This document shows, piece by piece, positions 1 to 14,621 of a DNA stretch of 16,843 bases; within the stretch, counting starts at the first letter, position 1, and each line of letters opens with the position of its first letter. The notes under the pieces were generated by a model, which did not search any database, had not been told where the DNA came from, and was given only the letters and a program-made list of their open reading frames with translations. Position numbers and translations under genes: made by a program. Origin of the DNA: Puniceicoccales bacterium (GTDB taxonomy: Bacteria > Verrucomicrobiota > Verrucomicrobiia > Opitutales > JAIRLG01); contig JAITRB010000012.1 of NCBI GenBank assembly GCA_031288595.1, positions 1-16,843 of the forward strand, written 5' to 3'.

Positions 1-10
1 ATCCAATCTC

Positions 11-86
<76 letters not shown>

Positions 87-152
87 AAACAGAACTTCTC
101 ACCCTGAACATCGCTGGGAGAAAGTCAAGGAAACTCAGTTCTAGACCTAGAT

Positions 153-2507
153 CTAGAGCCAGAGCTGGGGCATTTCCCCAATGTCCAGATTCTCCAAGAA
201 TTTGGGAAGAGAGGCTGCCTTTTCCCGAAAGAGCATTTGGGCCATATTGCCTGGGCCTTTGGGGAAGAGGGATTCATCGTCCACGAGAAAGCAGCATCTC
301 TTGGCCCGCGTCAGGGCCACGTAGAGCAGACGCTCCTCGTTCTGGGTCTGCCGAAGTCCGATCTCTTCGGCGAATTCTGGGAGCTGCTGCCTGTCGAAAA
401 TCACGTGTGGGCCATCGGAGGAGGAAATCCATCTGGGGTAGCGATGAGTAGGCTCGTGTTTGCCGCGGTAGAGGAAGGGGATGATCACGACGGGCCATTC
501 GAGGCCCTTGGCCTTGTGGAAGCTGAAGAACTGAATCGCATCGGGCGCAACAGCCATCGCCGTCTCGCCCTCATCCAGAAGAGCCGCGAGTTCCCGCCAC
601 CACTCATCGAGTGTGAGGGAACGGCAGCTGGCCTCACGGGCTCGCTCGCGAAAGGCCTCGTAGTCGGGCCCAAAGCTCCTTTCGAAAATCACCTCCAGCC
701 GCTCGGTTACTCGATAGCGCTCCTGCAGATATTCCAGCATTTGTACGGGACTGTAGGCCAAAATTTCTGCATAATTCCTCTGAAAATCTTCGCAGATTTG
801 CCGAATTTCACCCTCCTCCTCCCCTAGGGCGAAGTGGCGGGCGATACGTGCATCGGAAATACCGAAGATCTCCCGAAGAACACCGCTCAGCTCGAAATCA
901 TTTCTCGGCTCCAGGGAAACTTTTATGAGCGCGCTCATCCAGGCATAGAACGGTCGGTCGCGGTACGTCGTTTCCTGAGAGTGCAGCTGGTAGGCCGGTG
1001 TGCCCGAAAGGTCTTGAAAGGCCTGAGCCAGCTCGTGTAACCATTTCTTTCTCGGGCATAGGAGCGCGATCTCCGACCACTGTTCGACTCCAAAATCCGA
1101 TGCCGAGCGCTTTTGAAAGGCCTTGGCGATGAGGCGAGCCTCTTCGCGAGGCGGTTCTTCTGGGACGCAATCGGATGAAATGAGCCACCGATAGACATGA
1201 CCTCGAACGGCATCTGGTCTTGCCTGTAGAGGGACGAAGGCAGCCTGACCCTCGACCCCCGTTAGAATTTTTGGGAACTGCGCATTGACGAAATCCACCA
1301 GCGTTCGTGGGCAGCGCAGGGTTACCGAAAAGCTGAGCGCTTCGGCCCCCTGCTCTTCGATCAGTCGCCGGTGCAGTTCCAGATAGGTCGGCAGTGCTGC
1401 GCGCTCGGCATAGATGGACTGCTGCGGATCGCCCACCATGCAGAAATAACCCGCTGCCGGAAAGCTCCAGGGCTGTCGCTGGGCACTGGCCAGGGATAGC
1501 AGCCATTCGAACTGATGGAAATCTGTATCCTGTGCCTCATCCAGAATCACGCGATGGCGGGGAATGTTTTTGGCCATCCTCTCGTCGCCCAGGCAGCGGT
1601 GGGCCAGGAGGATGAGGTCCTCGTAGAAAAGCAGTCCTTCCCGAATCCTGTACTGCAGGTATTGCTCCTGCACTTCGGCCAAAAGGGCCCGCAGGATGTG
1701 ATCTGACCAGCGCCAGTACTTTTTCATTTCCGGCAGGAGAAGGGCGAGAAAGGGTGCATGATTTGTCTCTATCTTCGGGAGAGAAGCCCCTTTTTTTCCA
1801 TCCTCCCAGTCCTTCAATTGCCCTTGCAGGCGCACGACCTGGGCGGCTCCCCGTCCCTCGGCCCTGAACTGCTGAACGGCCGCGAGCTTCAGAACCGGTG
1901 GAGGCGGGAGAGGTATTTCATCCCCAAACATGGCTGAAGCTCTTTGCAAGAATAGGGGATTTTCCCGAAGAACCGGTGCTTCCGGCACGAGGGATAGGTA
2001 GTCCCAGAGATGGAAATCGGACTGGATTTTTACCAAAAAATCCGCTGGGATGGACCGGAAGAGCGTTGTAGTTTCTCCGAGAAAGCGCCGCCAGAACGAC
2101 TGTTTTTCCGTTTCCCTCAGGATATTGAAAGCGGGAGATAGGCCCAGCACCGGGCCATGGGAGCGGAGGAATTGATGGGCCAGGCCATGGATGGTCCCGA
2201 AGAAGACCGAGGACAATGGGCCTGAGAGATCACTTTCCAGCTCCAGTGGAGATTCTCGAAGCGATTTTCCTACACGTTGTTCCAGCTCCCCAGCCGCCTT
2301 TTCGGTATAGCTCACGACGAAGAGGGAATCGTCCTCATCCCAGAGAGGTGAAACAATTTCCGCTGCGCGGTGCCGGAGCCAAGTGACGACGCGAGAGGCA
2401 ATAGCACTCGTCTTGCCCACGCCCGCCGGGGCGATGACCGAGAAGTTGCGGTCGAGTTCGTGGATGAAGCGCGAGCGCTCCGCTTCATCGGCCAAGATCG
2501 TCTTCAT
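153..2507 (-). CDS. UvrD/Rep/PcrA-family superfamily-1 DNA helicase (784 aa), no recognisable C-terminal nuclease domain
   Basis: The SF1 motifs are readable in the translation. They are APAGVGKTS (Walker A/motif I), VSYTEKAAGELEQRV (Ia), ILDEAQDTD (II), VGDPQQSIY (III), FHKAKGLEWPVV (V) and LLYVALTRAK (VI). The long ORF has third-position GC bias. Its start ATG at 2507 overlaps the rsmE stop by 23 nt. Confidence 0.85.
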   Translation of the reverse strand: MKTILADEAERSRFIHELDRNFSVIAPAGVGKTSAIASRVVTWLRHRAAEIVSPLWDEDDSLFVVSYTEKAAGELEQRVGKSLRESPLELESDLSGPLSSVFFGTIHGLAHQFLRSHGPVLGLSPAFNILRETEKQSFWRRFLGETTTLFRSIPADFLVKIQSDFHLWDYLSLVPEAPVLRENPLFLQRASAMFGDEIPLPPPPVLKLAAVQQFRAEGRGAAQVVRLQGQLKDWEDGKKGASLPKIETNHAPFLALLLPEMKKYWRWSDHILRALLAEVQEQYLQYRIREGLLFYEDLILLAHRCLGDERMAKNIPRHRVILDEAQDTDFHQFEWLLSLASAQRQPWSFPAAGYFCMVGDPQQSIYAERAALPTYLELHRRLIEEQGAEALSFSVTLRCPRTLVDFVNAQFPKILTGVEGQAAFVPLQARPDAVRGHVYRWLISSDCVPEEPPREEARLIAKAFQKRSASDFGVEQWSEIALLCPRKKWLHELAQAFQDLSGTPAYQLHSQETTYRDRPFYAWMSALIKVSLEPRNDFELSGVLREIFGISDARIARHFALGEEEGEIRQICEDFQRNYAEILAYSPVQMLEYLQERYRVTERLEVIFERSFGPDYEAFRERAREASCRSLTLDEWWRELAALLDEGETAMAVAPDAIQFFSFHKAKGLEWPVVIIPFLYRGKHEPTHRYPRWISSSDGPHVIFDRQQLPEFAEEIGLRQTQNEERLLYVALTRAKRCCFLVDDESLFPKGPGNMAQMLFREKAASLPKFLENLDIGEMPQLWL

Positions 2508-3261
2508 GGAACTGTAGCCACTGGTCGATGACGCTCAGCGCGTAAGCACTGGCGGTTTCCGCCCTCAAAACTCGGCGGGATAGGCGGACTGCACGGATGT
2601 CCTTGGTCGCCAGGAGGCGATATTCTTCCGGACTGAAATCGCCGGCCGGCCCCACGAAAATGACGAACGAAGCGAAGGCCTTGCCCGAAGCCGCGTCCTC
2701 CAGCACATTCCAGAACCTTTCCGCCTCCGGTTCCAGGCTGGCGACGAGCAGAAGATTCGACTCTGTCGGCAATGGCGAGAGATAGTCTGCCAGGGATCGA
2801 GGGGGTAAAATTTCTGGCAGAAAAGGCTGGCCTGACTGCTTGCAAGCCGCAATAGCAATCGAGCGCCAGCGCTCCGATTTCCGCCTCTCCTGCCCCGGTG
2901 GGATTTTGCCCTCGCCGTGCTCGGTGAGGAGCGGAACAATTTGGCTCACGCCCAGAGCACTTGCCTCGCGGATCAGGGTATCCATGGTCCTGTGCTTGCC
3001 TAGGCCCTGAGCCAGGATAAGGGGATGCTTTGGGGCTGAGAAGGAAGATACTTTCTGCACCTGTGCCCAGGCCTGGTTTCGATGGATCTCCAGACAGGCG
3101 AGGGCTTGGGCACCCCTTCCGTCGAGTAGATAGATCTCGGCGCCATGCTTCGCCCTCAGGACATGGAGCAGGTGATGGGCCTCTGTTCGGGGCAAAAGGT
3201 ACTTTTGACCCACTGCCCATGGCGAGGGCTGCGGGAGGAAGCAGCGAAGGTGGCTTGACAT
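2485..3261 (-). CDS. rsmE: 16S rRNA (uracil1498-N3)-methyltransferase RsmE (258 aa)
   Basis: The translation has the typical RsmE layout. The N-terminal PUA-like part reads EAHHLLHVLRAKHGAEIYLLDGRG. The C-terminal SPOUT part reads FVGPAGDFSPEEY...RLSRRVLRAETASAYALS. Size is as expected for the family. Confidence 0.85.
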   Translation of the reverse strand: MSSHLRCFLPQPSPWAVGQKYLLPRTEAHHLLHVLRAKHGAEIYLLDGRGAQALACLEIHRNQAWAQVQKVSSFSAPKHPLILAQGLGKHRTMDTLIREASALGVSQIVPLLTEHGEGKIPPGQERRKSERWRSIAIAACKQSGQPFLPEILPPRSLADYLSPLPTESNLLLVASLEPEAERFWNVLEDAASGKAFASFVIFVGPAGDFSPEEYRLLATKDIRAVRLSRRVLRAETASAYALSVIDQWLQFHEDDLGR

Positions 3262-3310
3262 GGTGTTTTTAGGAATGAGGTGCTTTCTCTAGGGCTGGCG
3301 ATGAGGTTTA

Positions 3311-3412
3311 AGGGGGCTGTCTTTGGATCCCTCTGGGATCGCTCGCGGAGCGAGCCTCAAGGGAGGAGATGAAGCCTTGGCTTCATCTCCTCCCTTGCAA
3401 AGACAGCCCCCT
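3311..3412. repeat. Structured intergenic repeat, copy 1 (closing stem plus three hairpins, 102 nt)
   Basis: 3311-3325 pairs perfectly with 3398-3412 (15 bp). The enclosed hairpins are 3326-3331/3335-3340, 3341-3346/3350-3355 and 3359-3375/3380-3396. The copy shares identical blocks GCTGTCTTTGGATCCC, GGGATCGC and CCTTGCAAAGACAGC with 10859-10953. Confidence 0.75.
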
Positions 3413-3417
3413 AAGAA

Positions 3418-4158
3418 CTAAAAAGATCTCGGGATAATCCACTCCATGTCCTGAGCAGCCACCCAGCCGGAGCGGCTCCCATCCCGCGTCGTGACATAGA
3501 AAAATGCCTCATGCTGCTTCTGCGGATACACGTAGTTTCCGCTCAGCAGGGGGGAAAGGGTGGGACTTTTTTCCGTAGGTGCGACGCGCAGCGGGCTTTC
3601 CCTTACGAGGATGGCCTGCCGGTTCTTTTCCTCCAGCTGATGGAGGATAGGCACAAGGGCGAGCCACAGGAAGAGGTCCGTCATCCAAAGGGCCCGACGT
3701 AATCTCTTGGTGGAGGGCATTGCTGAGCGGGGACAAGCGAGGAGGATGGCCAAGAGCCAGAGAGCCAGAGAAGCTACATAGGCCCAGCAGCGCCCCGACG
3801 CGGGCAGCCCGAACTTCTCGGTCCATAGGGCCTTTGAAGGACAGGAAGGACCCCGTAGCCACCACTGACGCCGCGTTTCCCGTAACGCCGCATTCCCAGG
3901 ATCCAGGTGCAGCGCCCGTTCGAGATGAAGCAGGGCCTTGCCCCACTCTCCCTTCGCCTCGTAACAGCGCGCCAGCTGGGCCGATGTCGCGGCTGAAAAG
4001 CCTCCCTTTTGGGCATTTTGATAATGGGCGATGGCCTGGTCGACATGAGCTTCCTGCAGAGCGGTATTGCCCTGATAGAAGGCATTTTCGTTCCCCTGTG
4101 CCCAGGAGCAGAGGAAGAGCATAGATCCCAAAACCGATGAGATGGGGGAAATTTTCAT
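3418..4158 (-). CDS. batE: BatE-like protein: signal peptide, TPR repeats, two TM segments, C-terminal SH3-like domain (246 aa)
   Basis: I trimmed the track ORF 3418..4206 to the ATG at 4158 (MKISPISSVLGSMLFLCSWAQG, signal-like). That ATG forms an ATGA stop/start overlap with the upstream gene. A TPR-like segment reads AIAHYQNAQ...ARCYEAKGEWGKALLHLERALHLDP. The hydrophobic segments are WAYVASLALWLLAILLA and LFLWLALVPIL. The C-terminus GWVAAQDMEWIIP looks SH3b-like. It is the last gene of the Bat-type operon. Confidence 0.65.
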   Translation of the reverse strand: MKISPISSVLGSMLFLCSWAQGNENAFYQGNTALQEAHVDQAIAHYQNAQKGGFSAATSAQLARCYEAKGEWGKALLHLERALHLDPGNAALRETRRQWWLRGPSCPSKALWTEKFGLPASGRCWAYVASLALWLLAILLACPRSAMPSTKRLRRALWMTDLFLWLALVPILHQLEEKNRQAILVRESPLRVAPTEKSPTLSPLLSGNYVYPQKQHEAFFYVTTRDGSRSGWVAAQDMEWIIPRSF

Positions 4159-5963
4159 GATGGGGTTTGGGGTCGATGCCGAAAAATTTTCTGGATAAGT
4201 TCCCAATCCTCCTGGAGGGATTTCGGAGCAAGTGGCGAAGAAGCGAAGTGCTGCAGTTCCAGGTGCTGGCAGAGGACGCGGATGCTCTGCCTGTCCTCGT
4301 CGTTTGCCAATTTCTTTTCGCAGACCGACTGAATCTCCCCATAAGTCATCGACCGGCTGTCGAAAATACCCCAGGAGGCGAGACCGGCATGGAGCGCTTC
4401 CTGTAGGGCCTTGGCAGCAAGGTCCGCCTGTCCCTTTTCGATGGCCTTCTGAGCCTGTCCGAGAAACTGACGCAGGGAGCGCCGATGGCGCCTAGGATCC
4501 CTTTGCTCGAGCACTTTGGCCCTCTGCTTCGCATAGCTCCTCTCCAGCCAGACCAAGTACAGCACCAGCGGCAACAGCTGCCACAGCCAGAAGTTTCTCC
4601 GGCGATAGAAGGGTATAAGGCTCGAGAAATGGGCCGTGTCGTTTAGGTAGAAGAACGAGCTTTCCAAAGCTTCCGGCGTGTTTTCTTGGGCCTTAGGCTC
4701 ATCCGACTTTTCTGGCCGGGCATTCAAGGGAGCATTGCCCTTCGGGGCGCTTATCTGTGAACTGATCTGCCGATTGCGCGAGACCAAAATCTTTTCCTGA
4801 AATTCATGGCGCAGGGTCTGATACTCCCTCTTCTGTGGATCGAAATAACTCATCTCCACCGTCGGCAAGGCGAGCTCTCCCGTCTTGAGGGGCATGAGGA
4901 CGTAATCAAAGATCTTCTTCCCCTTATATCGCAATGCATCGGCAGGACGGAAATCTCCCTTCGGGGAATAGGTCTTCCAGTCCTCCGCTTTACACAAGAG
5001 CCCCGGTGGGGACAGCCGCTCCCAATTACCCTCGCCTTCCACCTCGACCCGCAGGGTCAGAGGTTCTTCCAAAAGCGTCTGGATATCGGAAATCTGGGAT
5101 CGGCCGAGAGAGAAATTCCCTATCGCTCCGCCGAAAGAACTGGGGGCCGATGCCGGCAAATTCTGCACCTTGAGGAAAAGTTTTTTGGAAAAAAGTTCCT
5201 CTTCTCTATTGTCGGAGAAAAGGCCGAACCATCCCATACCCATGGGCTCCTGAATGCTGAGGCCCAGGAGGTATTGCAGGGGCATCTCTCCGGCTTTAAT
5301 GGCTGAAATCGTCGTATCCCAGGCATAGACGACCTCGCCCCCGCGATTTTGGGGAACCGAGATTTTACGCAGTTCGGAAAAGGGCCCATTGATCCATGTT
5401 TTTTCCAATAGAAGGGGATTGGGTTGAAGGAGACTACAGGAGACTGAAGAATTCAGCTCGATTCGAATGGGAATGAGCTGACCGACATAAAAGGGCTCTG
5501 CACTCAAGAGAACGGTCGACAACTGCGCGGCGGAACGCCTGGGGTGGCTTTCTGTCCAATCCTCCTCCTCAGCCTCCTCTTCTCCCTCAAACACCTGCAG
5601 GGTGGCTGAGGGCAACTCGTATTCCTTGCCCTGAAGGGAGAAAGTCTGGGCTGGAATCGTAAAACTGCCCGTTCGGCGTGCCTGAACTTGAAAGGTTTGG
5701 GTCCGCTGTATCGACTGATGGCCGTTGATGGCATGCACCGACTGCAGGTTTTGTGACGATCCGAAGCGAAGGCCATCGACCGGCGGCGGCTGGTAAATGA
5801 ACTGTGGGATATTGCCGGATGCTTCCACCACATACTGCGCGCTCTGGCCGATTCGGATTCTGGATGGCCGAAAGAAAGCCTGAAGCTGGGCATCGGCCGC
5901 AGAGGCAATCCCCAAAATCCATGGGTAAAAACCGAGGAGTCGAAACCAAAATTGCCTGTTCAT
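4155..5963 (-). CDS. batD: BatD-like (oxygen-tolerance family) membrane-anchored protein (602 aa)
   Basis: It has an N-terminal signal peptide (WILGIASAADAQ), a long beta-rich exported region, one TM near residue 450 (FWLWQLLPLVLYLVWL) and a helical cytoplasmic tail. It occupies the BatD position after the VWA/TPR genes. The call rests on architecture and synteny only. Confidence 0.65.
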   Translation of the reverse strand: MNRQFWFRLLGFYPWILGIASAADAQLQAFFRPSRIRIGQSAQYVVEASGNIPQFIYQPPPVDGLRFGSSQNLQSVHAINGHQSIQRTQTFQVQARRTGSFTIPAQTFSLQGKEYELPSATLQVFEGEEEAEEEDWTESHPRRSAAQLSTVLLSAEPFYVGQLIPIRIELNSSVSCSLLQPNPLLLEKTWINGPFSELRKISVPQNRGGEVVYAWDTTISAIKAGEMPLQYLLGLSIQEPMGMGWFGLFSDNREEELFSKKLFLKVQNLPASAPSSFGGAIGNFSLGRSQISDIQTLLEEPLTLRVEVEGEGNWERLSPPGLLCKAEDWKTYSPKGDFRPADALRYKGKKIFDYVLMPLKTGELALPTVEMSYFDPQKREYQTLRHEFQEKILVSRNRQISSQISAPKGNAPLNARPEKSDEPKAQENTPEALESSFFYLNDTAHFSSLIPFYRRRNFWLWQLLPLVLYLVWLERSYAKQRAKVLEQRDPRRHRRSLRQFLGQAQKAIEKGQADLAAKALQEALHAGLASWGIFDSRSMTYGEIQSVCEKKLANDEDRQSIRVLCQHLELQHFASSPLAPKSLQEDWELIQKIFRHRPQTPS

Positions 5964-5975
5964 GGGATAGAAGGA

Positions 5976-8261
5976 CTACCAGGGTTGGGCATTTTCCGTC
6001 GACGGAGGTGGGCCGTAGAACAGAGGTAATATCTTCTCGTCACCCGCTTCGGAATCCAGAAGTGCCTTGGCCTCCATGAGGCTCATCTTCCCATCCATGA
6101 GCTCCGGAGCTTCCCCTGTATTTCCCATGGCGACGGAGCTGGCGCTACCCTTTCCCTGTTTTTCCAGATCTTCCTCTTCGCCTCCCTCACCGGCTCCTTC
6201 TTTGGCCTCTGCCGCCCCGGAGTCCTTCCTCTTCAAGGGAGAAGGTGGTGAAGCTGCTTGCTGCTTCCCTTGGGGGACTGAGGCGTCAGATGCTTGATCT
6301 CTCGAGCCGGCAGGGAATTGTCCGGAAGATTCCCTCTTGGCTGGCGATTCCTCGGCTTCTTCTCCTGAGCTTTTCTCCTGTTCCCGCTCTCCTTTCCCCT
6401 TTCCCTCACCTTCCTGGGGCTTCTCCCCCTGAGCCGATGGTTTTTCTGAGCTCGCAGCTCGATCCTTGTTTTCCGGCGATGCTTTCTTTTCCTCTCCCCC
6501 TTTTCCCTCTTGGGGATCTGAGGGATCTCTACCCGAATCCGATGACGATGGGCCAGAGGAAGAAGGGTCTCCTTTACCCTCTCCTTTGCCCTTTCTTTGG
6601 CCTTGCTCCGGCTCCTGATGGGACTGTCCTTTACTCTCTTGGGATGGTTCCGGATCGCCGGAATCCGGTGGGGATGCTCCCGAGTCCCCTGAGGGGTTTT
6701 CCTGTCCTCTCGGTGACGACGGAGGCTTTGGGCGTGCTTCGCGTTGGCGACGGAGTTCTTCTAAGTGATGTTGAACATAGCGGCGATTCTTCTCCGCGGC
6801 TTTGTAATCCTTCGACAACGCCAAGGCACTGTCGTACCATGAAATGCTATTTTCCCAGAGCTGTTGCACTAGCCCTAAGGTTTCATCTTCTTCCTCGCTA
6901 CCATCGGCCTTAGCCCCTTCTCTCTGCTTTTTTCCCTGTTCAAAACAGATGTTTCCCAAATCAAAAAATACTCTGTTTTTAAGTTCTGGATCAGGAGTTG
7001 CGATCAGTTTGTCGAGATATTTAGAGGCCTCGATCAAGTTTTTTTGGGCCAAATAGGTTGTCCCGAGATTGTAGAGCAGCCTCGGGTCATTGGGATGTTT
7101 GGCGATTTCCTTCTCATAATAGGCTTGGGCCTCGCCATATTGTCCTTCGGCGAAAAATTTTTCCCCTGGGCTCTGAACTGCTGAGGATTCGGAAATCCCG
7201 CCCTCAAACAGGCTCGCCGCAAGACAGAGAAGGAGCCAAGAAGCTCCACGGCGCCGCTCCCATTTCCTGGGCCGCTGATAGGTGGATAGAAGGGCTTCTA
7301 GGAACCAGAGGGCTATGGCCACCAGGAGGAAGTAGGGAAATCGCTCGGTGAAGACCTTTTCCTGATATACCTCCTGTTCCTTGATGGGAAAGCGATTCTT
7401 CAGTTCATCCATCAGCTGCTGCAGCTCCTGCACCGAGAGATGGACGTAGCGCCCCTCCGTGATTTCTGCCAATTTCTTCAATGTCGTCTCGTCGAGCTTG
7501 GTAACGACCTCCTTGCCCTCGGCATCCTTGAGGTACTGCGTCATTCGGTTTTCTCCTTGAATGGGGATCATGCCTCCCTCGAGGGTGCCGACGCCGATGC
7601 TGAAGATATGGAGCCCGTTCTTGGCCGCCGATTCCGCCGCCGCGATGGCATCCTTCTTCAACTCCTCACCGTCGGAGAAGAGCAGGATAAGGCGTTCGTT
7701 GCGCGTCTTTTCCAGCACCTTCTCTGCCGCCCGTACAGCTGAGGCAATGGAGGTACCCTGCTGCGGAATCGTGTCGACATCCAGGGCTTCCACACTCTGC
7801 AAAAAGGCCCGATAGTCTAGGGTCATAGGGCACTGGATGAAGGAATCATAGGCGAAGGCGATGAGGCCGATGCGGTGGCCGTGCAGCTCTCGCACGAAGT
7901 CTTGGATGGTGATTTTCGTGCGTTCGAGGCGGTTCGGCTTTAAATCCTCGGCCAGCATGCTCCGCGACACGTCGACGGCGAAGAGCACGTCCACTCCCTG
8001 AGTGTGGTATTCTTTCCAGGTATACCCCCAACGGGGTCTGGCTAGCGCTAAGGCGCAGAGGAGCGTGGCCAGAAGACAGAGGAGATATTTCACCATCTGT
8101 CGGATCGAACTGTGGTTGAGGACGAGGTGCTGCCAGGCCTTATCCGCGAGCAGTCGACGTCTTCGGACCTGCCGCTGTTTTTCGCTGTGTAGGAAGAGCA
8201 CAACGAGACAGCCGCACAGGGCGAAACCGATCCAGATATAGAAGGGATGAAGAAAATTCAT
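5976..8261 (-). CDS. batB: BatB/BatC-like fusion: TM, von Willebrand factor A domain, TM, TPR repeats, ~210-aa acidic/Ser/Gly/Pro/Lys-rich tail (761 aa)
   Basis: I trimmed the track ORF 5976..8318 to the ATG at 8261 (MNFLHPFYIWIGF...), which forms an ATGA overlap with the batA-like stop. The VWA MIDAS motif DVSRS sits in DVLFAVDVSRSMLAEDLKPNRL. The TPR-like stretch is GQYGEAQAYYEKEIAKHPNDPRLLYNLGTTYLAQKNLIEASKYL. Confidence 0.78.
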   Translation of the reverse strand: MNFLHPFYIWIGFALCGCLVVLFLHSEKQRQVRRRRLLADKAWQHLVLNHSSIRQMVKYLLCLLATLLCALALARPRWGYTWKEYHTQGVDVLFAVDVSRSMLAEDLKPNRLERTKITIQDFVRELHGHRIGLIAFAYDSFIQCPMTLDYRAFLQSVEALDVDTIPQQGTSIASAVRAAEKVLEKTRNERLILLFSDGEELKKDAIAAAESAAKNGLHIFSIGVGTLEGGMIPIQGENRMTQYLKDAEGKEVVTKLDETTLKKLAEITEGRYVHLSVQELQQLMDELKNRFPIKEQEVYQEKVFTERFPYFLLVAIALWFLEALLSTYQRPRKWERRRGASWLLLCLAASLFEGGISESSAVQSPGEKFFAEGQYGEAQAYYEKEIAKHPNDPRLLYNLGTTYLAQKNLIEASKYLDKLIATPDPELKNRVFFDLGNICFEQGKKQREGAKADGSEEEDETLGLVQQLWENSISWYDSALALSKDYKAAEKNRRYVQHHLEELRRQREARPKPPSSPRGQENPSGDSGASPPDSGDPEPSQESKGQSHQEPEQGQRKGKGEGKGDPSSSGPSSSDSGRDPSDPQEGKGGEEKKASPENKDRAASSEKPSAQGEKPQEGEGKGKGEREQEKSSGEEAEESPAKRESSGQFPAGSRDQASDASVPQGKQQAASPPSPLKRKDSGAAEAKEGAGEGGEEEDLEKQGKGSASSVAMGNTGEAPELMDGKMSLMEAKALLDSEAGDEKILPLFYGPPPSTENAQPW

Positions 8262-9286
8262 GGCAACACCCTCCATAGACTGTAGCGAAGGACGAGTTCT
8301 AGGAGCAGGAACATCCATGCGATGAGGACGAAAATGGCGAAATACTCCTTCGTCTCCACATAGGCCTGTAGCTCGATTTCCGTCTTTTCCTGCTCATCGA
8401 TGGTCCGGTAGATCTCGCTGAATTCCTTGTGATTGTGGGCATGGAAGAAGCGCCCCTGCGTGGTCTCGGCTATTTTCTGCAGTACCGCTGTATCCAGTGA
8501 GAGTTCGGCCTGCACTATCTGGGGCTCTCCAAAGCGATTGACGATGGGGTTGCCGTCCTGGCCAACCATGAGAATGGGAACCACTCCTTCTTTCCCGATG
8601 CCGATGCTGTAGATTTTGATCCCGTAGCGCGCAGCCGCTTCCGCAGCGATTTCAGGGGATACATTCCCTCTGTTGTTGATCCCATCCGTCAGCAAGATGA
8701 GGATTTTGGACTTCGCCTCCATATCTCGCAGGCGATTACAACCGGCTAGGATGGCGGAACCGATGGCAGTGCCATCCGGAATACTGCCGATGTGAAGGCG
8801 CTCGAGGTTCTGAATCAACCATTCGTGGTTAAAGGTGACGGGGCTCACCACGTAGGATTCGGAGGCGAAGCCGATGAGCCCGATGCGATCGTGGGGGCGC
8901 TTTTCGATGAACTCCGCCGTGAGTTTTTTGGCCACGTCCAGTCGGGTGACGAGCGGCTTCGAGGGCTCCCAAAAGTCGAGGGCCGTCATCGACGATGAGA
9001 GGTCGAGGGCGATGACGATGTCAACGGCGTCCTGATGGGTCTCCTGGGATTTTTCCACGTGCTGGGGCCTCGCCAGCGCGAAGATGAGAAAGATCAGGCC
9101 CCAGGCCCTGAGGGCAAATAGTATCCGTTGAGGAGTGCTCTGGGGAGATGAGTGGCCCTTTTGCATAGGCCAGAGGCTGGGAAAGCGAACGCTGGGCCGG
9201 CGAAAGCGGCGCAGGCTCTCGTAGAGCAGCGGCAACAGCAACAGGAGCAGGAGCCAGAAGGGTGAAAAGAGTCGATAACTAGCCAT
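8258..9286 (-). CDS. batA: BatA-like von Willebrand factor A domain membrane protein (342 aa)
   Basis: It has an N-terminal TM (FWLLLLLLLPLLY). The VWA domain carries the MIDAS motif DLSSS in DIVIALDLSSSMTALDF, plus ILLTDGINN. There is a C-terminal TM (FAIFVLIAWMFLLLELVL). Its start overlaps the upstream gene's stop by 8 nt. Confidence 0.85.
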   Translation of the reverse strand: MASYRLFSPFWLLLLLLLPLLYESLRRFRRPSVRFPSLWPMQKGHSSPQSTPQRILFALRAWGLIFLIFALARPQHVEKSQETHQDAVDIVIALDLSSSMTALDFWEPSKPLVTRLDVAKKLTAEFIEKRPHDRIGLIGFASESYVVSPVTFNHEWLIQNLERLHIGSIPDGTAIGSAILAGCNRLRDMEAKSKILILLTDGINNRGNVSPEIAAEAAARYGIKIYSIGIGKEGVVPILMVGQDGNPIVNRFGEPQIVQAELSLDTAVLQKIAETTQGRFFHAHNHKEFSEIYRTIDEQEKTEIELQAYVETKEYFAIFVLIAWMFLLLELVLRYSLWRVLP

Positions 9287-9944
9287 GGGCGGCAGAAATA
9301 GCTGAATTTCCGGCCCCAGGAGAGGCTGGAGCCGCTCTGAGTTTCTCCCTTTGCTCTTGGCGGTAGAGGCGACGCAGGGTCAGGCCCAAAGTGCAGGTCT
9401 TGAGGTAGAGCGCACGTCGCTCCAGCACCGACAGCTCCTGACCGGCGAATTTGACCTGGTCGCTGAAGCGCAGCACATCGCAGAGCGCGCTCTGGGTCTC
9501 CCAATTAACGCGTTCGATCTGTTGGAAACTGTGCAGGAACTCCTCCGTCGTTTGCGTGCGGCTCTGGCGCGGGAATTCCCGCTCGATATAGCGGCGCACC
9601 CCTGTCGAGAGCAGTGTGGCGAAGGCCTTCGACTGCGCCAGCGACAGAGTTTGGCGGGCCTTCTTCAAATCCACCATCAGCTGCTCCGCCGAACTGAGGA
9701 CCTCTTCCGGAATATCGTGCCGGCGGCGCTTGAGCATCCAGGCCGTGACTCCGAGTGCCGTCAGCAGCAGCGCGAAGAGGAGGATTAAGAAATAGCGAAG
9801 CCCGAGACTTCCCGTCTCCACCGGCAGCTCGGACGGAACCCATTCCAGAGCTTCCACTTCCTCCGAGACCGTCTCTGCGCACAGGGGAAGCCCCATGCCC
9901 CAGTAGAACAGAGCACAAAAGCACTTCGAGACCCTTGATGCCAT
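9279..9944 (-). CDS. DUF4381-like single-pass membrane protein, first gene of the Bat-like operon (221 aa)
   Basis: It has a signal-like N-terminus, one TM (YFLILLFALLLTALGVTAWML), then a helical region ending ...VLRFSDQVKFAG. This resembles the small membrane protein that precedes batA in Bat operons. It is translationally coupled to the batA-like gene. The family assignment is from memory of the architecture, not a search. Confidence 0.55.
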   Translation of the reverse strand: MASRVSKCFCALFYWGMGLPLCAETVSEEVEALEWVPSELPVETGSLGLRYFLILLFALLLTALGVTAWMLKRRRHDIPEEVLSSAEQLMVDLKKARQTLSLAQSKAFATLLSTGVRRYIEREFPRQSRTQTTEEFLHSFQQIERVNWETQSALCDVLRFSDQVKFAGQELSVLERRALYLKTCTLGLTLRRLYRQEQREKLRAAPASPGAGNSAISAAHG

Positions 9945-9962
9945 AAAATGCGATGGTTTTTT

Positions 9963-9990
9963 CGGATAAAAATTGCGATTTACATGTCAA
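9963..9990 (-). promoter_or_regulatory. Candidate sigma70-type promoter for the Bat-like operon
   Basis: The minus strand reads TTGACA (9990-9985), 16 nt, then TATCCG (9968-9963), about 20 nt upstream of the ATG at 9944. The -35 is perfect and the -10 is weak (3/6). Confidence 0.25.
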
Positions 9991-10087
9991 TAAATGAGTC
10001 CATGGGCTAGCTTTTTTCATGGAGAGCTTGGGAAGCAGGGGCAGAAATTTTCGCTCGCGACCAAGTTTTGTATCGAACTCGTCGGAA

Positions 10088-10108
10088 TACATATTTAAAA
10101 AATATGTA
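10088..10108. promoter_or_regulatory. Perfect 21-bp palindrome TACATATTT-AAA-AAATATGTA in the divergent intergenic region (candidate operator)
   Basis: The 9-bp arms at 10088-10096 and 10100-10108 are exact reverse complements with a 3-nt spacer. It sits about 70 bp upstream of the ATG at 10179 and about 145 bp upstream of the minus-strand ATG at 9944, in the most AT-rich stretch of the window. Confidence 0.3.
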
Positions 10109-10178
10109 AAAAATAACCTTGAGTTTCCATCGACTCTCTGGCAGAAGTTCGGCCGAAAGGACAACCCATACTTAGGAC

Positions 10179-10721
10179 ATGAAAAATATTCTCTTCTGGA
10201 GTCTGATTCAAGCCGCGCCAGGGGAAACGCAAGTCCCTGAGGCTTTTGAAAGCGGCGAACTCGAGAAGGCGATTCAAGATCACGCCATCCAGCAATTGGT
10301 GCTCTTCGCTGTCCCCGAGTGGCGTCTGGTGCTCGAGGAATTCTGGATGCGCTGGCAGCAGAAAAATCCTGACTGCGAGCTCTGCGTCGAGTATATCCCC
10401 ACCATCCATCCTTCCTGTGGCGTTCTGAAGGCGGCCATGCAGCTGCATCTGCCCGATAGGAAAATCCACCGCGGATGGTGCTCTCTGAGCAACTCCCAAT
10501 CGTCCCACGAGGCATTCAAACAGGCTCTGGATGCTCTGTCGGAAGATCTGAAGTACCAGATCGTCTGGATAGATCTTAATCTTCCCGGCTCCCAAGAGGA
10601 GAAATTTTCTCTGCCGAAGCAGGAGGAGGAAGACCCCTACCATTGGTCCATCTTCGAAAAGGTGAGAGCTTTCGATGCCGAAAAAGCTCCGGCAACTGCC
10701 GAGTCTCCCAAGGCCAGCTGA
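10179..10721 (+). CDS. Hypothetical protein (180 aa), no family recognised
   Basis: Codons show the same G/C-rich third-position pattern as neighbouring genes, and the antisense competitor 10095..10643 does not. There is no signal peptide or TM. The protein contains CELC (CxxC) plus HPSC and HRGWC, and an acidic, probably disordered C-terminus. Confidence 0.6.
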   Translation: MKNILFWSLIQAAPGETQVPEAFESGELEKAIQDHAIQQLVLFAVPEWRLVLEEFWMRWQQKNPDCELCVEYIPTIHPSCGVLKAAMQLHLPDRKIHRGWCSLSNSQSSHEAFKQALDALSEDLKYQIVWIDLNLPGSQEEKFSLPKQEEEDPYHWSIFEKVRAFDAEKAPATAESPKAS

Positions 10722-10858
10722 GGCTTATGGAGATGCCTATAGTCGCTTCAGCTCTTTGGAATAGAACGCTGTTCCTTCAAGGGGACCGGGGGATGCCGAG
10801 GGCTTAGGTTTAAAATCCATGAGGTCCCGAGATAGAGGATTTCATTGCTTTTTTGTCT

Positions 10859-10953
10859 CTCGCTGTCTTTGGATCCCAAAGGGATCGCCCGCTACGCGGG
10901 CCACAAGGAGCGAAAAAGCATCCTGCTTTTTCGCTCCTTGCAAAGACAGCGAG
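10859..10953. repeat. Structured intergenic repeat, copy 2 (closing stem plus three hairpins, 95 nt)
   Basis: 10859-10871 pairs perfectly with 10941-10953 (13 bp). The enclosed hairpins are 10872-10877/10881-10886, 10887-10892/10896-10901 and 10905-10920/10924-10939. It has the same order, spacing and + strand orientation as copy 1. Confidence 0.75.
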
Positions 10954-11095
10954 CGCAGTTCCCATCAGCATCTTTCCCGCCGCAGGAAAATTTGGGATAT
11001 AGGTCTTAAACGGACAATCATTAGCTCCTTAAAGCTACTGACCTTCCCATATTTTCGACAGATAGGGGCAATGGAGCGAGTCTTGCGAACAGCAC

Positions 11096-11125
11096 TTGAC
11101 AGATCTCTCCTTCATCCGCAATCTT
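11096..11125 (+). promoter_or_regulatory. Candidate promoter for rnpB
   Basis: A perfect TTGACA lies at 11096-11101. After 17-18 nt comes only a weak -10 (CAATCT/AATCTT at 11119-11125), just upstream of the predicted RNase P RNA 5' end. Confidence 0.3.
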
Positions 11126-11126
11126 A

Positions 11127-11510
11127 GAGCTGTCTGGGGGTGAGAGGTTCACTTCGGTCATTGGGCTGAAGAGGAAAGTCCGGACACCACAGAGCAGAAT
11201 GCCCCACGAAAGTGGGGGTACGCGGAGATCAAGGCCGCGTAACGGCCAGTGCAACAGAGAATATACCGCCTTCGGGTAAGGGTGAAAAGGTGCGGCAAGA
11301 GCGCACCGCGCCTGGAGTGATTCAGGTGGCAGGGCAAACCCCATTCGGTGCAAGACAGAATAGGAGATAGAGTGGCTCGCTCGTCAGAAATCTCGGGTTC
11401 GTCGCACTTCCTTCCGGGAAGAGGTCCCGAAAGAGACCTTTCGAGATCTAGAGAAATGAGCCTCGGGGCCTTGAGCCCCAACAGAATCCGGCTTACCCCC
11501 CAGACCTTTC
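11127..11510 (+). ncRNA. rnpB: RNase P RNA, bacterial type A
   Basis: The universally conserved P4 strands GAGGAAAGTCCGGAC and ACAGAATCCGGCTTA are both present. P1 is formed by GTCTGGGGG (11132-11140) pairing with CCCCCAGAC (11496-11504). GNRA/UUCG-type capped helices occur throughout. The length of about 380 nt fits, and the ends are uncertain by a few nt. Confidence 0.93.
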
Positions 11511-11763
11511 TCTTCTTGGCTCTTGGGGAGATGGGGGACTAAGGCTTCGGCCTTGAGCTGCTACTCCTGCAGTAGGTCCGGACCTCACTTCGTCCGATGA
11601 GACATCAGATCTTATGCAGGTCTTATGTTGAAATTTCAATATCCCTTTGGACAAAGGGAAGTGGACAGATGTGTGTACGGCCGATGCGGAGAAAGAGCTT
11701 TTAAAGAGAACGGAGATTGACAGCCGGCAGCGGAATGACTCTGATGGGAGTCCCGATAAAACA

Positions 11764-12426
11764 ATGTATGCGGCTTCGGTTCTAAGTTCTTTAATCCAAA
11801 ACTTGAGTGAATTCATGGGGCAGTTGAGCCTCCTGGCCATCTTACTGTTCTATCTCAGCCTGAGCTCTATCTATCCGGAACGGATGCGCCTCGACATGGC
11901 CCGAAAGGCCTGCTGGGCGGCAGGGGGACTGCTCGGCTTTTTCGCCCTGACGGGTGAATTTTTCTTCCAAACACTCCGCATCGGCCCCTGCACCCTTTTC
12001 TTCGCGAGTGGGATCATCCTCTTCGCCGTGGGTTTCCGTCTCCTCAATGAGCAGAAGTCGGATCTTTCCCTCTCGGAAGAGAAGGCCGGCGATGACGGGA
12101 GCCTCTCTGGCCTGCCGGATATTTCCCTCATCCCTCTGGCCATCCCCCTGATCGCCCGTCCCTCCGCCATCCTCTTCCTCATTCGGGAACACAGCGCCGC
12201 CAGGGGCTTGGAAAATGCTCTCTCCTGTCACCTCATCCGCACTCTGAGCGTCGTGATAGCCATTTTCTTCCTATATTTCCTGCTTTTCCTGGTCGGCAAA
12301 GGACTCCACTGGCTTCACCCCGTCCTATTAAAGCTCTGCTACCGCCTCTCCGGGCTCTTTCTCCTCGCCATGTCCCTGCAGTTCATCATGGCAGGGCTGC
12401 GGGATGCTATATTATCTAGATTTTGA
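11764..12426 (+). CDS. MarC-family (UPF0056) integral membrane protein (220 aa)
   Basis: Three stretches align by eye with E. coli MarC. LRIGPCTLFFASGIILFAVGFRLL matches the RIAGGLIVAFIGFRML region. DISLIPLAIPLIARPSAI matches NIAFVPLAMPSTAGPGTI. RLSGLFLLAMSLQFIMAGL matches RLMGFLLVCMGVQFIINGI. The track ORF starts at a TTG at 11647 with a hydrophilic non-family extension, so I prefer the ATG at 11764 (the ATG at 11815 is also possible). Confidence 0.75.
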   Translation: MYAASVLSSLIQNLSEFMGQLSLLAILLFYLSLSSIYPERMRLDMARKACWAAGGLLGFFALTGEFFFQTLRIGPCTLFFASGIILFAVGFRLLNEQKSDLSLSEEKAGDDGSLSGLPDISLIPLAIPLIARPSAILFLIREHSAARGLENALSCHLIRTLSVVIAIFFLYFLLFLVGKGLHWLHPVLLKLCYRLSGLFLLAMSLQFIMAGLRDAILSRF

Positions 12427-12583
12427 GACCTGAGCTTGGGCGTGAGCTGTAGTTGAAAAAGAGTTTCTAGGATCGTCCTCTGACGAGGGGTATACGGGCT
12501 GGTGCTTTGGAATAAAGATCCCTCACGGTTTAGAGATTGACGCGGATGCTCGGGCTCGCTACACCTTGTGAGCTGGGGGTCAT

Positions 12584-13918
12584 GTGAATATCGAGATTCA
12601 GGATGTCGATGAGCTGCGAAAAGTCGCGACGCTCAGTTGCGATCCCCAACAGATAGAAAAAGAGGAAGATCTGATTCTGGAGGTCTTTTGCAAGGATGTT
12701 CAGCTCTCCGGTTTTCGGAAAGGTAAGGTGCCGAAAGAAATGGTCAGACGACGATTCGCCGGAGAGATCCAGCAGCGCCTGCATCAGAAACTCATCCAGA
12801 GCACCTATGAGGATTTGTTGAAGGAGAAGAAGTGGGAGGTCTTTGCGCTTGTGGTCGTCGATGGGCCGGAAGGGAATCCGGAAAAAGGACTCCAAATAAG
12901 CTTTACGCTGGACCTTCGACCGGAAGTAAAACTGGAAGATTACCGGCATTTTCCCCTCACGCCCTTCTCCATTGAGGTGGGGGCATCGGAACTTGAAAAG
13001 AGCCTCCAAGACTTGCGCCGGCAGCACGCGGATTACCGGAAAGTCGATCGGGCGGCCCAGAAGGGCGATTTCGTCCGCCTGAATTACAGAGGCATTTTAT
13101 CCGACGGTTCCGAGATCTCCAAGTGGGCCGAGGCCTGGCCAGTTCTGGGCGAGCAGCGCAACGTCTGGGAAGAAGCAGGAGCGGACGAACCCTCCGGTCT
13201 TCGCTGCATCGCCGATGCCCTTGTGGGACTCCAGGAGGGCGATGCCCGGGAAATCTCCACAGATTTCCCCGCCAATTTCGAGGTTCCGACCTTGGCAGGC
13301 CAAGCGGCGAGCTACCAGCTTCAGGTACTGGAGGTTCGCGAACCGGTTCTGCCCGAATGGGATGCGGATTTCTTTCACAAGATGAGGGTGGATACTCTCG
13401 AAGCACTGAAAGAAAAGGTTTTTCAGGAGCTTCAGGCCTACAAGAGGCAGCAGGGACGCCAGGCGCAGCGAGAGGAACTTATCCGCCTCCTCCTGAGCCG
13501 CGTTTCCTTCCCGATTCCGGAAAGCGCCATCATCGCCGAACAGGAACGTCTGCTGAAAAATTTCACGGAGCAGCAGGCACCCCATATCCTCAACTCCCCT
13601 GGATTCAAGAATCGCCAGAAGGAATTTTTTGAGCAGGCTTTGGCTCCGGCTCGCCAGCGGGCGGCGCTGAATTTTATTCTAGAGCATGTGGCGGAAAAGG
13701 AAAAAATAGGACTGACATCGGAAGATATGCAGCGGGTTTTGCTTCAGGATGCGGCGGCTTTACGCATCCCAGCGGAAAAGCTCCTCCAGGAGATGCAGCA
13801 GGATCGCCAGCGTCTGCGGGAGATGCAGCAGCGTGTGATTCTTAGCAAAGCACTTGATTTTCTTCTGGCCATTAATACCGAAACTTCGGATCCTTTGCCA
13901 GAAGCCAGGAAAGCGTAA
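12584..13918 (+). CDS. tig: Trigger factor (444 aa), GTG start
   Basis: The N-terminal ribosome-binding signature is GFRKGKVP in [16 protein letters not shown]. There is a central FKBP-like region ([10 protein letters not shown]...) and a helical C-terminal domain. It lies immediately upstream of clpP (4-nt gap), the classical tig-clpP arrangement. A GGGGG Shine-Dalgarno-like run sits just upstream of the GTG. Confidence 0.92.
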
Positions 13919-13922
13919 AATT

Positions 13923-14537
13923 ATGAGTTACTTACCTTTGCCCTATGTCTACGAGCGCGACGGTCGCCAGGAACGCTCCTGGGACATCTACAGCCGCCTC
14001 CTCAAGGATCGCATCATCTTCATCGGAACGGATATCGATGACTTTGTGGCCAATGCCGTGGTGGCCCAACTGCTCTTCTTGCAGATGGAGGATGCTCACA
14101 AGGACATCCACATCTACATCAACTCCCCGGGCGGCAGCATCACGGACGGCATGGCCATCTACGACACGATGCGCTTCATGAGCTGCGATGTGCTGACCTA
14201 CTGCATCGGCCAAGCGGCCAGCATGGCAACCATCCTTTTGGCTGCCGGAACGAAGGGGAAGCGCTACGCCCTACCCCACAGCCGCATGATGATCCACCAG
14301 CCCTCCGGCGGAGCCGGCGGACAGGCGGCCGACATCTCCATCGCGGCGAAGGAAATTGTCCGGTGGCGCAAAACTCTCAACGAAGTGCTGTCTCTCGCCA
14401 CGGGGCAGGACATCGGAAAGATCGAGAAGGACTCCGATCGGGACTTCTTCATGACCCCCGAGGAGGCGAAGATCTATGGTATCATCGACGAAGTGGTCGT
14501 CCAGCAGATCCATCCCGCGTCAGAGGAAAAGCCCTGA
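13923..14537 (+). CDS. clpP: ATP-dependent Clp protease proteolytic subunit ClpP (204 aa)
   Basis: The catalytic triad context is clear: GQAASMA (Ser), MIHQPSGG (His) and DRDFFM (Asp). I trimmed the track ORF from 13854 to the ATG at 13923 (MSYLPLPYV...) because the extension overlaps the tig 3' end and is not ClpP-like. An AGGAAAG lies about 10 nt upstream. Confidence 0.95.
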
Positions 14538-14621
14538 GAGGACTCAGGGACGCTTTGGAGGAATTGCAATTGGCTGAGAAGTCGGTGGATCTGCCGGGAT
14601 AGTGGCTTTCCTTTGTAGCGC

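Follow-up and report, generated by a model that had tools for sequence, protein, structure and literature searches.

A dispersed cloverleaf repeat in uncultured Puniceicoccales, probably maintained at the level of DNA

Here we describe a structured element of about 100 nt that occurs twice in a 16,843-nt stretch of DNA (the window hereafter) from a Puniceicoccales bacterium (GenBank assembly GCA_031288595.1, contig JAITRB010000012.1, positions 1 to 16,843 of the forward strand). Its first copy lies between a batE-like gene and rsmE and folds into a cloverleaf of four helices. On balance, we favour the view that this is a dispersed, non-coding, once-mobile DNA repeat built of nested palindromes, similar to the REP and REPIN elements and previously undescribed. 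The cloverleaf shape is probably kept at the DNA level rather than as a dedicated RNA gene. The initial annotation of the sequence had preferred a dedicated RNA element and had placed a DNA-level hairpin element third among its alternatives; the mixed orientation of the copies, their strand-symmetric Watson-Crick pairing, the inversions of loops and apices and the demonstrable insertions speak against the former reading and favour the latter. As far as searched, the family is confined to a clade of uncultured Puniceicoccales (Verrucomicrobiota).

A perfectly paired four-way junction and its family

Copy 1 (3311..3412, + strand, type A) scores 94.3 bits (E 5e-21) with CM R1, a covariance model (CM) that was built from 14 seed copies. 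It is closed by a 15-bp stem, P1, whose 5' arm (3311..3325, +) consists of a lineage-specific outer AGGGG and the conserved core GCTGTCTTTG, and whose 3' arm (3398..3412, +) reads CAAAGACAGC and then CCCCT. Within P1 stand three hairpins: P2 (3326..3340, +), with GATCCC (3326-3331) and GGGATC (3335-3340) forming 6 bp around the triloop TCT; P3 (3341..3355, +), with GCTCGC (3341-3346) and GCGAGC (3350-3355) forming 6 bp around GGA, a GNA triloop; and, after a 2-nt linker, the long variable hairpin P4 (3358..3397, +), in which 3358-3375 pairs with 3380-3397 over 18 bp under a CTTG loop. The '+' of the model denotes the order P1-P2-P3-P4-P1', and copy 1 is in this sense antisense to bat/rsmE transcription. 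The 15-bp closing stem and the three perfect hairpins, first proposed from the letters alone, are confirmed by the sequence and by folding on both strands. The perfection of the pairing also stands, with zero mismatches, bulges or G-U pairs, although the earlier figures of 17 bp for P4 and 44 pairs in total need to be corrected to 18 bp and 45 Watson-Crick pairs.

Folding likewise upheld a second copy that had been predicted to share this architecture (10859..10953, +, type A, 96.3 bits), which forms a four-way junction of 42 Watson-Crick pairs with a 13-bp P1. For copy 1, the four-way junction is both the minimum free energy and the centroid structure on either strand (ViennaRNA). Its energy as RNA is -81.1 and -82.5 kcal/mol for the two strands (z -10.0 and -13.1, with 0 of 200 shuffles as good), and with DNA parameters it is -49.9 and -49.6 kcal/mol (z -12 and -13); both copies reach z values of about -10 to -14 on either strand, as RNA or as DNA. 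P1, P2 and P3 are nearly identical in the two copies, with a compensatory C-G to T-A change in P3, whereas P4 is wholly different yet equally perfect.

The initial annotation had left room for these two copies being the only ones, with no structural homologues elsewhere; instead, the family has many members, with strong covariation and with one site conserved in four lineages. When one genome per species was scanned for the exact pattern, 9 further copies came to light, all of them in three Puniceicoccales metagenome-assembled genomes (MAGs), one of which is about 80-83% identical in nucleotide sequence to the window over a syntenic stretch. The sequence examined in this work amounts to about 131 kb; besides the window, the loci are designated L001-L015 and come from related Puniceicoccales or, in L014 and L015, from more distant relatives. 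CM R1 detected 34 copies at E<=2e-8 in the window and L001-L012 and one more in L013, that is, at least 35.

Across the family, units are about 90-120 nt long, and each folds into a perfect four-way junction with linkers of 0-2 nt. P1 comprises 13-18 bp, of which the ten junction-proximal pairs are conserved (GCYGYCTTTG/CAAAGRCRGC) and the outer 3-8 pairs are specific to the copy or subfamily; the core is GCTGTCTTTG in type A and GCCGCCTTTG in type B, the other arm changing complementarily. P2 and P3 are hairpins of 6-9 bp with triloops, while P4 is a hairpin of 12-20 bp, always paired but with a sequence and a length of its own in nearly every copy; its centre is usually rich in A/T. Among the 34 copies, 96.4% of 1186 pair cells hold standard pairs and 31 of the 36 pairs change on both sides, so that all four helices covary; none of 500 shuffles reached this level, and slid partners gave only 40-50% paired cells. 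In P2, all 6 pairs covary and 100% of the cells are paired, GAGCCC/GGGCTC or GATTCC/GGAATC taking the place of the type-A sequence in other subfamilies. The type-A P2 (3326-3340 and 10872-10886 in the window) contains a GGATCC (BamHI) site and two GATC sites, which are not a family-wide feature because the other subfamilies carry the sequences just given.

The conserved 10-mer GCYGYCTTTG has zero occurrences outside the elements, and a free-standing 10-mer resembling an uptake signal is ruled out by its presence solely as element arms. Some paralogues share P4 and the outer P1 as well (L002:132 with L003:3352, and four type-B copies within one MAG), and it is therefore the whole unit that is copied. 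In the 5' arm of P4, many copies carry a purine-rich run and then an ATG. A conserved small peptide was considered here and rejected because the frame through the conserved P1 3' arm varies among copies; nor does the purine-rich arm amount to a strand asymmetry, since the two strands of a perfect hairpin read alike.

The manner of pairing bears on the level at which the shape is maintained. About 1394 predicted pairs include 19 G·T in one orientation and 9 A·C, the latter being G·T on the opposite strand, and no functional strand can be assigned from these counts (19 versus 9). The difference in folding energy (ddG) between the strands averages about 0; one strand is favoured in 13 copies and the opposite strand in 19. 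One-sided changes in P1-P3 are absent from the 14 seed copies and restricted to three cells among the 34 copies. The triloops are far from random: 72% of those in P2 and 72% of those in P3 have a closing C-G pair and the sequence GNA or that of its complement, TNC (12.5% expected), and both isomers are found at the same hairpin. C-GNA-G is said to be the classic, very stable DNA mini-hairpin (Hirao and Yoshizawa). The type-B P4 tip also occurs in two mirror forms, ...ATG-AAAGC-TCCC-GCTTT-G-CAT... and ...ATG-C-AAAGC-GGGA-GCTTT-CAT..., in which the bulge switches side along with the loop, and the P4 apex is inverted even between orthologues upstream of rnpB (GGGA in L010:1160, TCCC in L012:1763). 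Template switching by DNA polymerase between the arms of an inverted repeat is described as resulting in arm homogenisation and spacer inversion (PMC8604942), and perfect hairpins have been shown to arise and to be maintained by it (PMC8794818). Such switching yields "compensatory" changes without RNA selection. The covariation proves a palindrome-preserving process, not an RNA function. Watson-Crick-only, strand-symmetric pairing combined with inversion of loops and apices is the signature of DNA palindrome dynamics.

The copies are nearly all intergenic, and their orientation is mixed relative to the flanking genes. The loci that were reached through RsmE homology, and not through the element, contain 10 copies over about 55 kb; this density of about one per 5.5 kb extrapolates to hundreds of copies per genome. 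Clustering is pronounced, with 7 copies in 8 kb of L002 between housekeeping genes and in mixed orientations; in L002 and L007, groups of two or three copies separate housekeeping genes and tRNAs, again in either orientation. In L007 (1-1300), five copies, one of them decayed, lie within about 1.2-1.3 kb, interleaved with tRNA-Ser and tRNA-Met upstream of secG; the spacing from element to tRNA is 88 nt in L007 and also at tRNA-Ala in L010 and L012. The more distant, Opitutales-like loci L014 and L015 contain no copy detectable by CM. Scans of metagenome collections with a degenerate and a plain pattern gave 0 matches, as did a scan of a viral contig collection, and blastn found no match among plasmids and phages. 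From these collections the family looks very restricted, or else the relevant samples lie outside them. Searches of the literature returned nothing relevant on these MAGs or on an intergenic repeat of cloverleaf form.

Two contigs begin or end within elements (L009, 1-40; L011, 1-31 and 3189-3255), and the repeat thus apparently breaks metagenomic assemblies of these genomes; the examined stretch of L002 also ends inside one (7951-8000). Partial duplicates of P1 arms lie beside some complete elements, with AAAGACAGCCCCA present twice in L003 (195-218) and GCTGTCGCTTTG preceding L006:5782 (5755-5781), which suggests nested insertion or slippage. In L008, the element flanks at 1225-1246 and 1331-1345 resemble an older P1.

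Insertion history and persistence

The copies arrived by insertion, as two pairs of filled and empty sites show. The first is the batE-rsmE junction. In L013, where BatD, the batE-like protein, RsmE and the helicase are syntenic with the window (helicase and BatD being 56-61% identical to those of the other lineages), the batE-like stop and the rsmE start are joined as TGAGGATG (TGA-GG-ATG), with 2 nt between them and no element; the same contig carries an element elsewhere (73.7 bits). In the window, L009, L010 and L012, an element lies between the batE-like C-terminus, WIIPRS(S/F) and stop, and rsmE, in the same orientation relative to the operon. This C-terminus is conserved, including in L010 and L013. 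In the window, the batE-like TPR gene ends in TAG at 3418..3420 (-), 5 nt from the outer P1 of copy 1, and the rsmE start codon is at 3259..3261 (-), 49 nt beyond the element. The gap of 156 nt that contains copy 1 and the tightness of the neighbouring minus-strand junctions, which overlap or are about 12 nt apart, agree with the earlier measurements, and the proposal that the element sits within a polycistronic gene string gains support from L013, according to which this junction was ancestrally tightly coupled. Between copy 1 and rsmE, the flank motif AAACCnnATCGCCA (3296..3309, -) is kept in all four filled orthologous loci of the alignment. The same site, the same orientation and the conserved AAACCnnATCGCCA motif in four lineages argue for a single ancient insertion.

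The second site is the 3' end of a UvrD-like helicase open reading frame (ORF), into which a type-B copy has been inserted in L010 (13095-13198) and L012 (13074-13184). There, the element begins directly after the motif FW(Q/K/E)NL (FWQNL in these two) and contributes both the final ~19 codons and the TGA stop. In the window (87-200, minus strand), L009 and L013, the helicase 3' end lacks the element and has an ordinary C-terminus, which in the window and L013 leads straight into the tRNA-Ala promoter region.

Membership of a transposon or insertion sequence (IS) family that leaves target-site duplications had been raised as a competing explanation, and no duplication was found across the copies. 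Exact adjacent repeats are lacking (0 nt) in 22 copies, while 9 copies have a repeat of 1 nt and 1 copy has a repeat of 2 nt; for imperfect duplications, the best 9-mer match between flanks scores 4.5, compared with 4.25 +/- 1.1 in mismatched controls. The pair CAAAATCTG and CAAAAACCA was considered as a duplication at the helicase insertion and discarded, there being no such signal across copies. A-rich 3' flanks are general to the family, and the 5' flanks are T-rich. Clean boundaries were sought in L008 versus the window and, downstream of rnpB, in L010 versus L012, and none were found, the flanks being too diverged. The only recombinase seen next to a copy, a tyrosine recombinase in L002, is XerD (346.5 bits, above the cut-off); as it scores as a housekeeping gene, it is ruled out as the mobilising enzyme.

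Once in place, the batE-rsmE copy has persisted. RsmE, the helicase and BatD are 52-57% identical between the two lineage pairs (among the window, L009, L010 and L012) that share it. In L010 this copy is of type A, whereas the other three copies are of type B; it has therefore descended vertically, without being overwritten by paralogues. Between L010 and L012, the element at batE-rsmE is 92.6% identical, compared with 61-71% in its flanks and with 65.7% at four-fold-type codon positions of rsmE, the neutral benchmark. The corresponding values are 70% for the element and 63-72% for the flanks at the copy upstream of rnpB, and 80% and 81-84% at the helicase/tRNA-Ala copy. In these latter two, the element changes as fast as its flanks and is nevertheless still almost fully paired; palindromy is therefore preserved generally. 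The batE-rsmE copy is under additional constraint. It may have been co-opted locally, and its conservation well above the flanks makes a local RNA role plausible.

Around the other copies, a few features of the neighbourhood deserve mention. Copy 2 lies 137 nt downstream of a 180-amino-acid ORF (+) and 179 nt upstream of the gene for class A RNase P RNA, rnpB (11133..11508, +), all three in the same orientation. In the relatives, rnpB is at L010:1371-1748 and L012:1964-2340, and in the window, L010 and L012 an element is found 97-179 nt upstream of it (about 100 nt in L010 and L012), in the same orientation. L010 has a further, inverted copy 260 nt downstream of rnpB, and the rnpB segment is inverted in the window relative to L010 with respect to the bat operon, which could reflect recombination between flanking inverted copies. 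Downstream of the helicase, tRNA-Ala(CGC) is located at 11-86 (-) in the window and in the regions L010:13240-13361 and L013:5740-5860. A CTTGACTT box about 32-38 nt upstream of it in all lineages (about 100-135, -, in the window) is probably the -35 of its promoter.

Upstream of rsmE, L009 (60-150) has three copies of a TATTCCTAAA(G/A)AAAC-like motif, of which the window has one, CATTCCTAAAAACACC (3262-3277, -), immediately before the rsmE ATG. A promoter reading of the conserved AAACCnnATCGCCA flank is unsupported, by eye or by consensus scan. Further along, three CT-rich repeats of about 38 nt, spaced by 95-97 nt (6387-6616), lie in the ORF of a BatB-like VWA/TPR protein (5976-8318, -), where they are probably a repetitive low-complexity linker.

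Weighing the explanations

We propose the following course of events for a once-mobile DNA repeat. The unit would be non-autonomous, like the REP and REPIN elements: a structure-specific enzyme whose gene lies elsewhere in the genome would act in trans and copy it in the form of folded single-stranded or cruciform DNA. The helices would be kept perfect mainly by intra-element template switching at replication, with homogenisation of the arms and inversion of the spacers, possibly reinforced by selection. In the window, the unit would have come between batE and rsmE, which were coupled ancestrally. Its transcript, whichever the orientation, would fold into an RNA junction of about -80 kcal/mol, which most likely decouples the translation of the two genes and serves as a barrier to 3'-exonucleases or a partial block to transcription, protecting or ending the upstream message. 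In E. coli, REP and BIME elements provide such a barrier or partial block. For the present element, we infer these effects on RNA stability and coupling.

Several observations weigh against this reading. The four-way architecture is without counterpart among the described REP and REPIN elements. The junction-proximal core is conserved across old paralogues, and this conservation, together with the 92.6% identity at batE-rsmE, is difficult to account for unless the host side is under selection. Both filled sites contain extra, non-element sequence, which leaves the exact boundaries and the target undefined. A tblastn search of the ~131 kb for a Y1/RAYT-like ORF, with approximate IS200, IS608 and RayT sequences as queries, gave nothing above noise. 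Finally, all five independent copies upstream of stable-RNA genes (two at rnpB and one each at tRNA-Ala, tRNA-Met and tRNA-Leu) share the orientation of the gene, with p of about 0.06 in a sample subject to ascertainment bias.

The main rival is a cis-acting RNA element of the host, a kind of operon punctuation that might be an intercistronic or 3' untranslated stabiliser, a terminator or insulator independent of a U-tract, or an RNase processing signal. With Watson-Crick pairing in every helix, it would work in either orientation. The fold is very stable as RNA on both strands, covariation is strong, and the batE-rsmE copy has been kept in four lineages at the identity given above. The copies also lie where such a signal might be expected, typically at a distance of 5-230 nt from the preceding stop codon and, where -35-like boxes are recognisable (rnpB and tRNA-Ala), 50-70 nt before these, and few convincing canonical terminators are seen at the gene ends of the window. 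Yet G·U makes up only about 1-2% of the pairs, and the pairing is strand-symmetric; orientation relative to the flanking genes is mixed, inversions of loops and apices are tolerated, and two of the three orthologous pairs evolve at the flank rate. One copy lies within the coding 3' end of the helicase, and others occupy a divergent promoter region (L007, 938-1229). No U-tract follows the structure. A canonical intrinsic terminator, which the initial annotation had already set aside for want of a T-tract, is rejected here by the sequence, with no T-run on either strand, and by a terminator scan in which the elements are absent among the terminator-like sites; the T/A bias of the flanks is the reverse of that of a terminator. 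A host RNA element seems to us rather unlikely. An independent family of small RNA genes, trans-acting or tRNA-like and with a promoter of its own, is very improbable. It could account for the cloverleaf outline, for the multiple copies with a conserved core, and for the five cases mentioned, in which a copy lies near a tRNA or rnpB gene and shares its orientation, but no conserved promoter or terminator flanks the copies, their orientation elsewhere is arbitrary, and one copy is translated within the helicase. The loops are variable and 3 nt long, with almost no conserved unpaired nucleotides. A tRNA-like element in particular is excluded by 'acceptor' stems of 13-18 bp and such 3-nt loops; ARAGORN and the Rfam tRNA model call only genuine tRNAs.

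Other explanations remain at the level of DNA. The element might be a double-stranded or cruciform site for a host protein (nucleoid-associated, gyrase, or one that binds or resolves Holliday junctions), with the core CTTTG|G ... TG|CAAAG as the recognition sequence and a function at the level of the chromosome. Watson-Crick-only, strand-symmetric pairing agrees with this, as do the conservation of the sequence next to the junction while the distal stems vary freely, and the enrichment of the triloops for C-GNA-G. The perfect palindrome of P4 is long, its spacer is short and its centre is usually rich in A/T, classic features that favour cruciform extrusion, and the inner end of P1, TTT↓G, resembles what we take to be the RuvC cleavage consensus, (A/T)TT↓(G/C), although this is a resemblance only. 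On the other hand, P2 and P3 are too short to be extruded alone, no candidate protein was found, and the XerD gene beside one copy is an ordinary housekeeping gene; we consider a host-protein site improbable. The initial annotation had found no match to attC sites or to Correia-type miniature inverted-repeat transposable elements (MITEs), and the tests support that the element is no known attC site or MITE with terminal inverted repeats and target-site duplications. The P1 arms do resemble terminal inverted repeats of 13-18 bp, and attC sites have conserved ends and a variable, sometimes branched centre. However, target-site duplications are absent, no parental IS was found in the examined loci, and plasmids and phages gave no match. 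There are no GTTRRRY/RYYYAAC boxes, extrahelical bases or unpaired central spacer, and clustered copies are spaced by 20-260 nt, too short for gene cassettes, and in mixed orientations. No IntI was found; the one tyrosine recombinase seen is, by its score, XerD. A classical MITE or attC-like site is therefore largely refuted, and we give it scarcely any credence.

The once-mobile DNA repeat could be taken further, in a form that we regard as speculative and, in its entirety, unlikely. The family would then be a long-lived, vertically inherited cloverleaf DNA symbiont of Verrucomicrobia, a new class of element that is analogous to the REPINs but built as a four-way junction, that flips and flops in the manner of adeno-associated virus (AAV) and that is propagated as folded single-stranded DNA by an HUH or junction-resolving enzyme. 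Individual copies, such as those at batE-rsmE and just before the promoters of rnpB and tRNAs, would by then serve the host as operon punctuation or insulators that work in either orientation.

The element is a caution for RNA discovery. It combines near-perfect covariation in four helices with a pattern of change that points to upkeep of the palindromes at the DNA level by template switching, and screens that equate covariation with functional RNA would misfile it. Such a family implies a mobilising activity. Its copies apparently break MAG assemblies and can rewrite gene ends (the helicase C-terminus) and split coupled genes (batE and rsmE), which affects annotation and operon prediction in these genomes. 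The conserved batE-rsmE copy offers a way into the co-option of a selfish repeat.

Comparison with known systems

The absence of a match to Rfam, which the initial annotation had stated, is upheld by the scans. At gathering thresholds, Rfam 15 recognises only RNaseP_bact_a and tRNA in the window, and a permissive scan of 3250-3470 yielded only generic miRNA-hairpin noise far below threshold. Among the described repeats, the MITEs with terminal inverted repeats and target-site duplications (Correia/NEMIS, ERIC, RUP and BOX) are similar in their length of about 100-150 nt, in their terminal inverted repeats, in their strongly folding transcripts and in their intergenic or co-transcribed position. 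The present element differs in that neither a target-site duplication nor a parental IS was found, that its interior consists of independent perfect palindromes, and that every helix shows subfamily-specific compensatory changes. The attC sites work as folded single-stranded DNA and share the plan of conserved ends and a variable branched centre, whereas our element has the ends GCYGYCTTTG/CAAAGRCRGC and perfect stems, without R and L boxes, integrase or cassettes, and has housekeeping genes as neighbours. With the Rickettsia palindromic elements (RPEs), it shares the presence of a translated palindromic repeat in an ORF, here the helicase tail of L010 and L012. RPEs are, however, unrelated in sequence and lie in frame in the middle of many genes, whereas in our case the repeat replaces a 3' terminus and nearly all copies are intergenic.

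In shape, the closest parallel known to us is found among viruses. The inverted terminal repeats of parvoviruses, including AAV, are T- or Y-shaped hairpins with a long outer stem, small inner palindromes with 3-nt loops and two flip/flop isomers that result when the inner palindromes are inverted, and an HUH endonuclease acts on their folded DNA. The nested palindromes, triloops and mirror isomers of our element recall this arrangement, a structural resemblance that implies no homology. It is chromosomal, interspersed and bacterial, with four helices instead of three; there is no sequence similarity, and neither a linked Rep gene nor a linear replicon was found.

The best match in behaviour is to the REP, BIME and REPIN elements. 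REPINs are non-autonomous, mobilised by RAYT and vertically persistent (PMC3337134, PMC3116915, 10.1101/2022.05.22.493013). Like these families, the present element is short, palindromic, non-coding, intergenic and multi-copy, occurs in both orientations and is often clustered, with alternating orientation, between same-strand genes; it lacks a target-site duplication and is vertically persistent, and the copies in L002 and L007 are arranged as those of BIME clusters are. Transcribed REPs reportedly stabilise upstream mRNA or attenuate read-through (Newbury et al. 1987). The differences are mostly those of build. A REP is a single imperfect hairpin, and a REPIN is a doublet of inverted REPs that together form one long hairpin, whereas our element is a four-way junction with a closing stem of 13-18 bp and three inner hairpins, its stems being essentially perfect and its P4 arm hypervariable. 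No 5' tetranucleotide of the GTAG type was seen in it, nor a RAYT in the ~131 kb. The hosts differ as well, since REP and RAYT are at home in E. coli, Pseudomonas and Stenotrophomonas, and the present element in the phylum Verrucomicrobiota. The interspersed palindromic repeats of bacteria thus gain a phylum, with the Puniceicoccales as its representatives, and an architecture, that of a closed four-way junction with one hypervariable arm.

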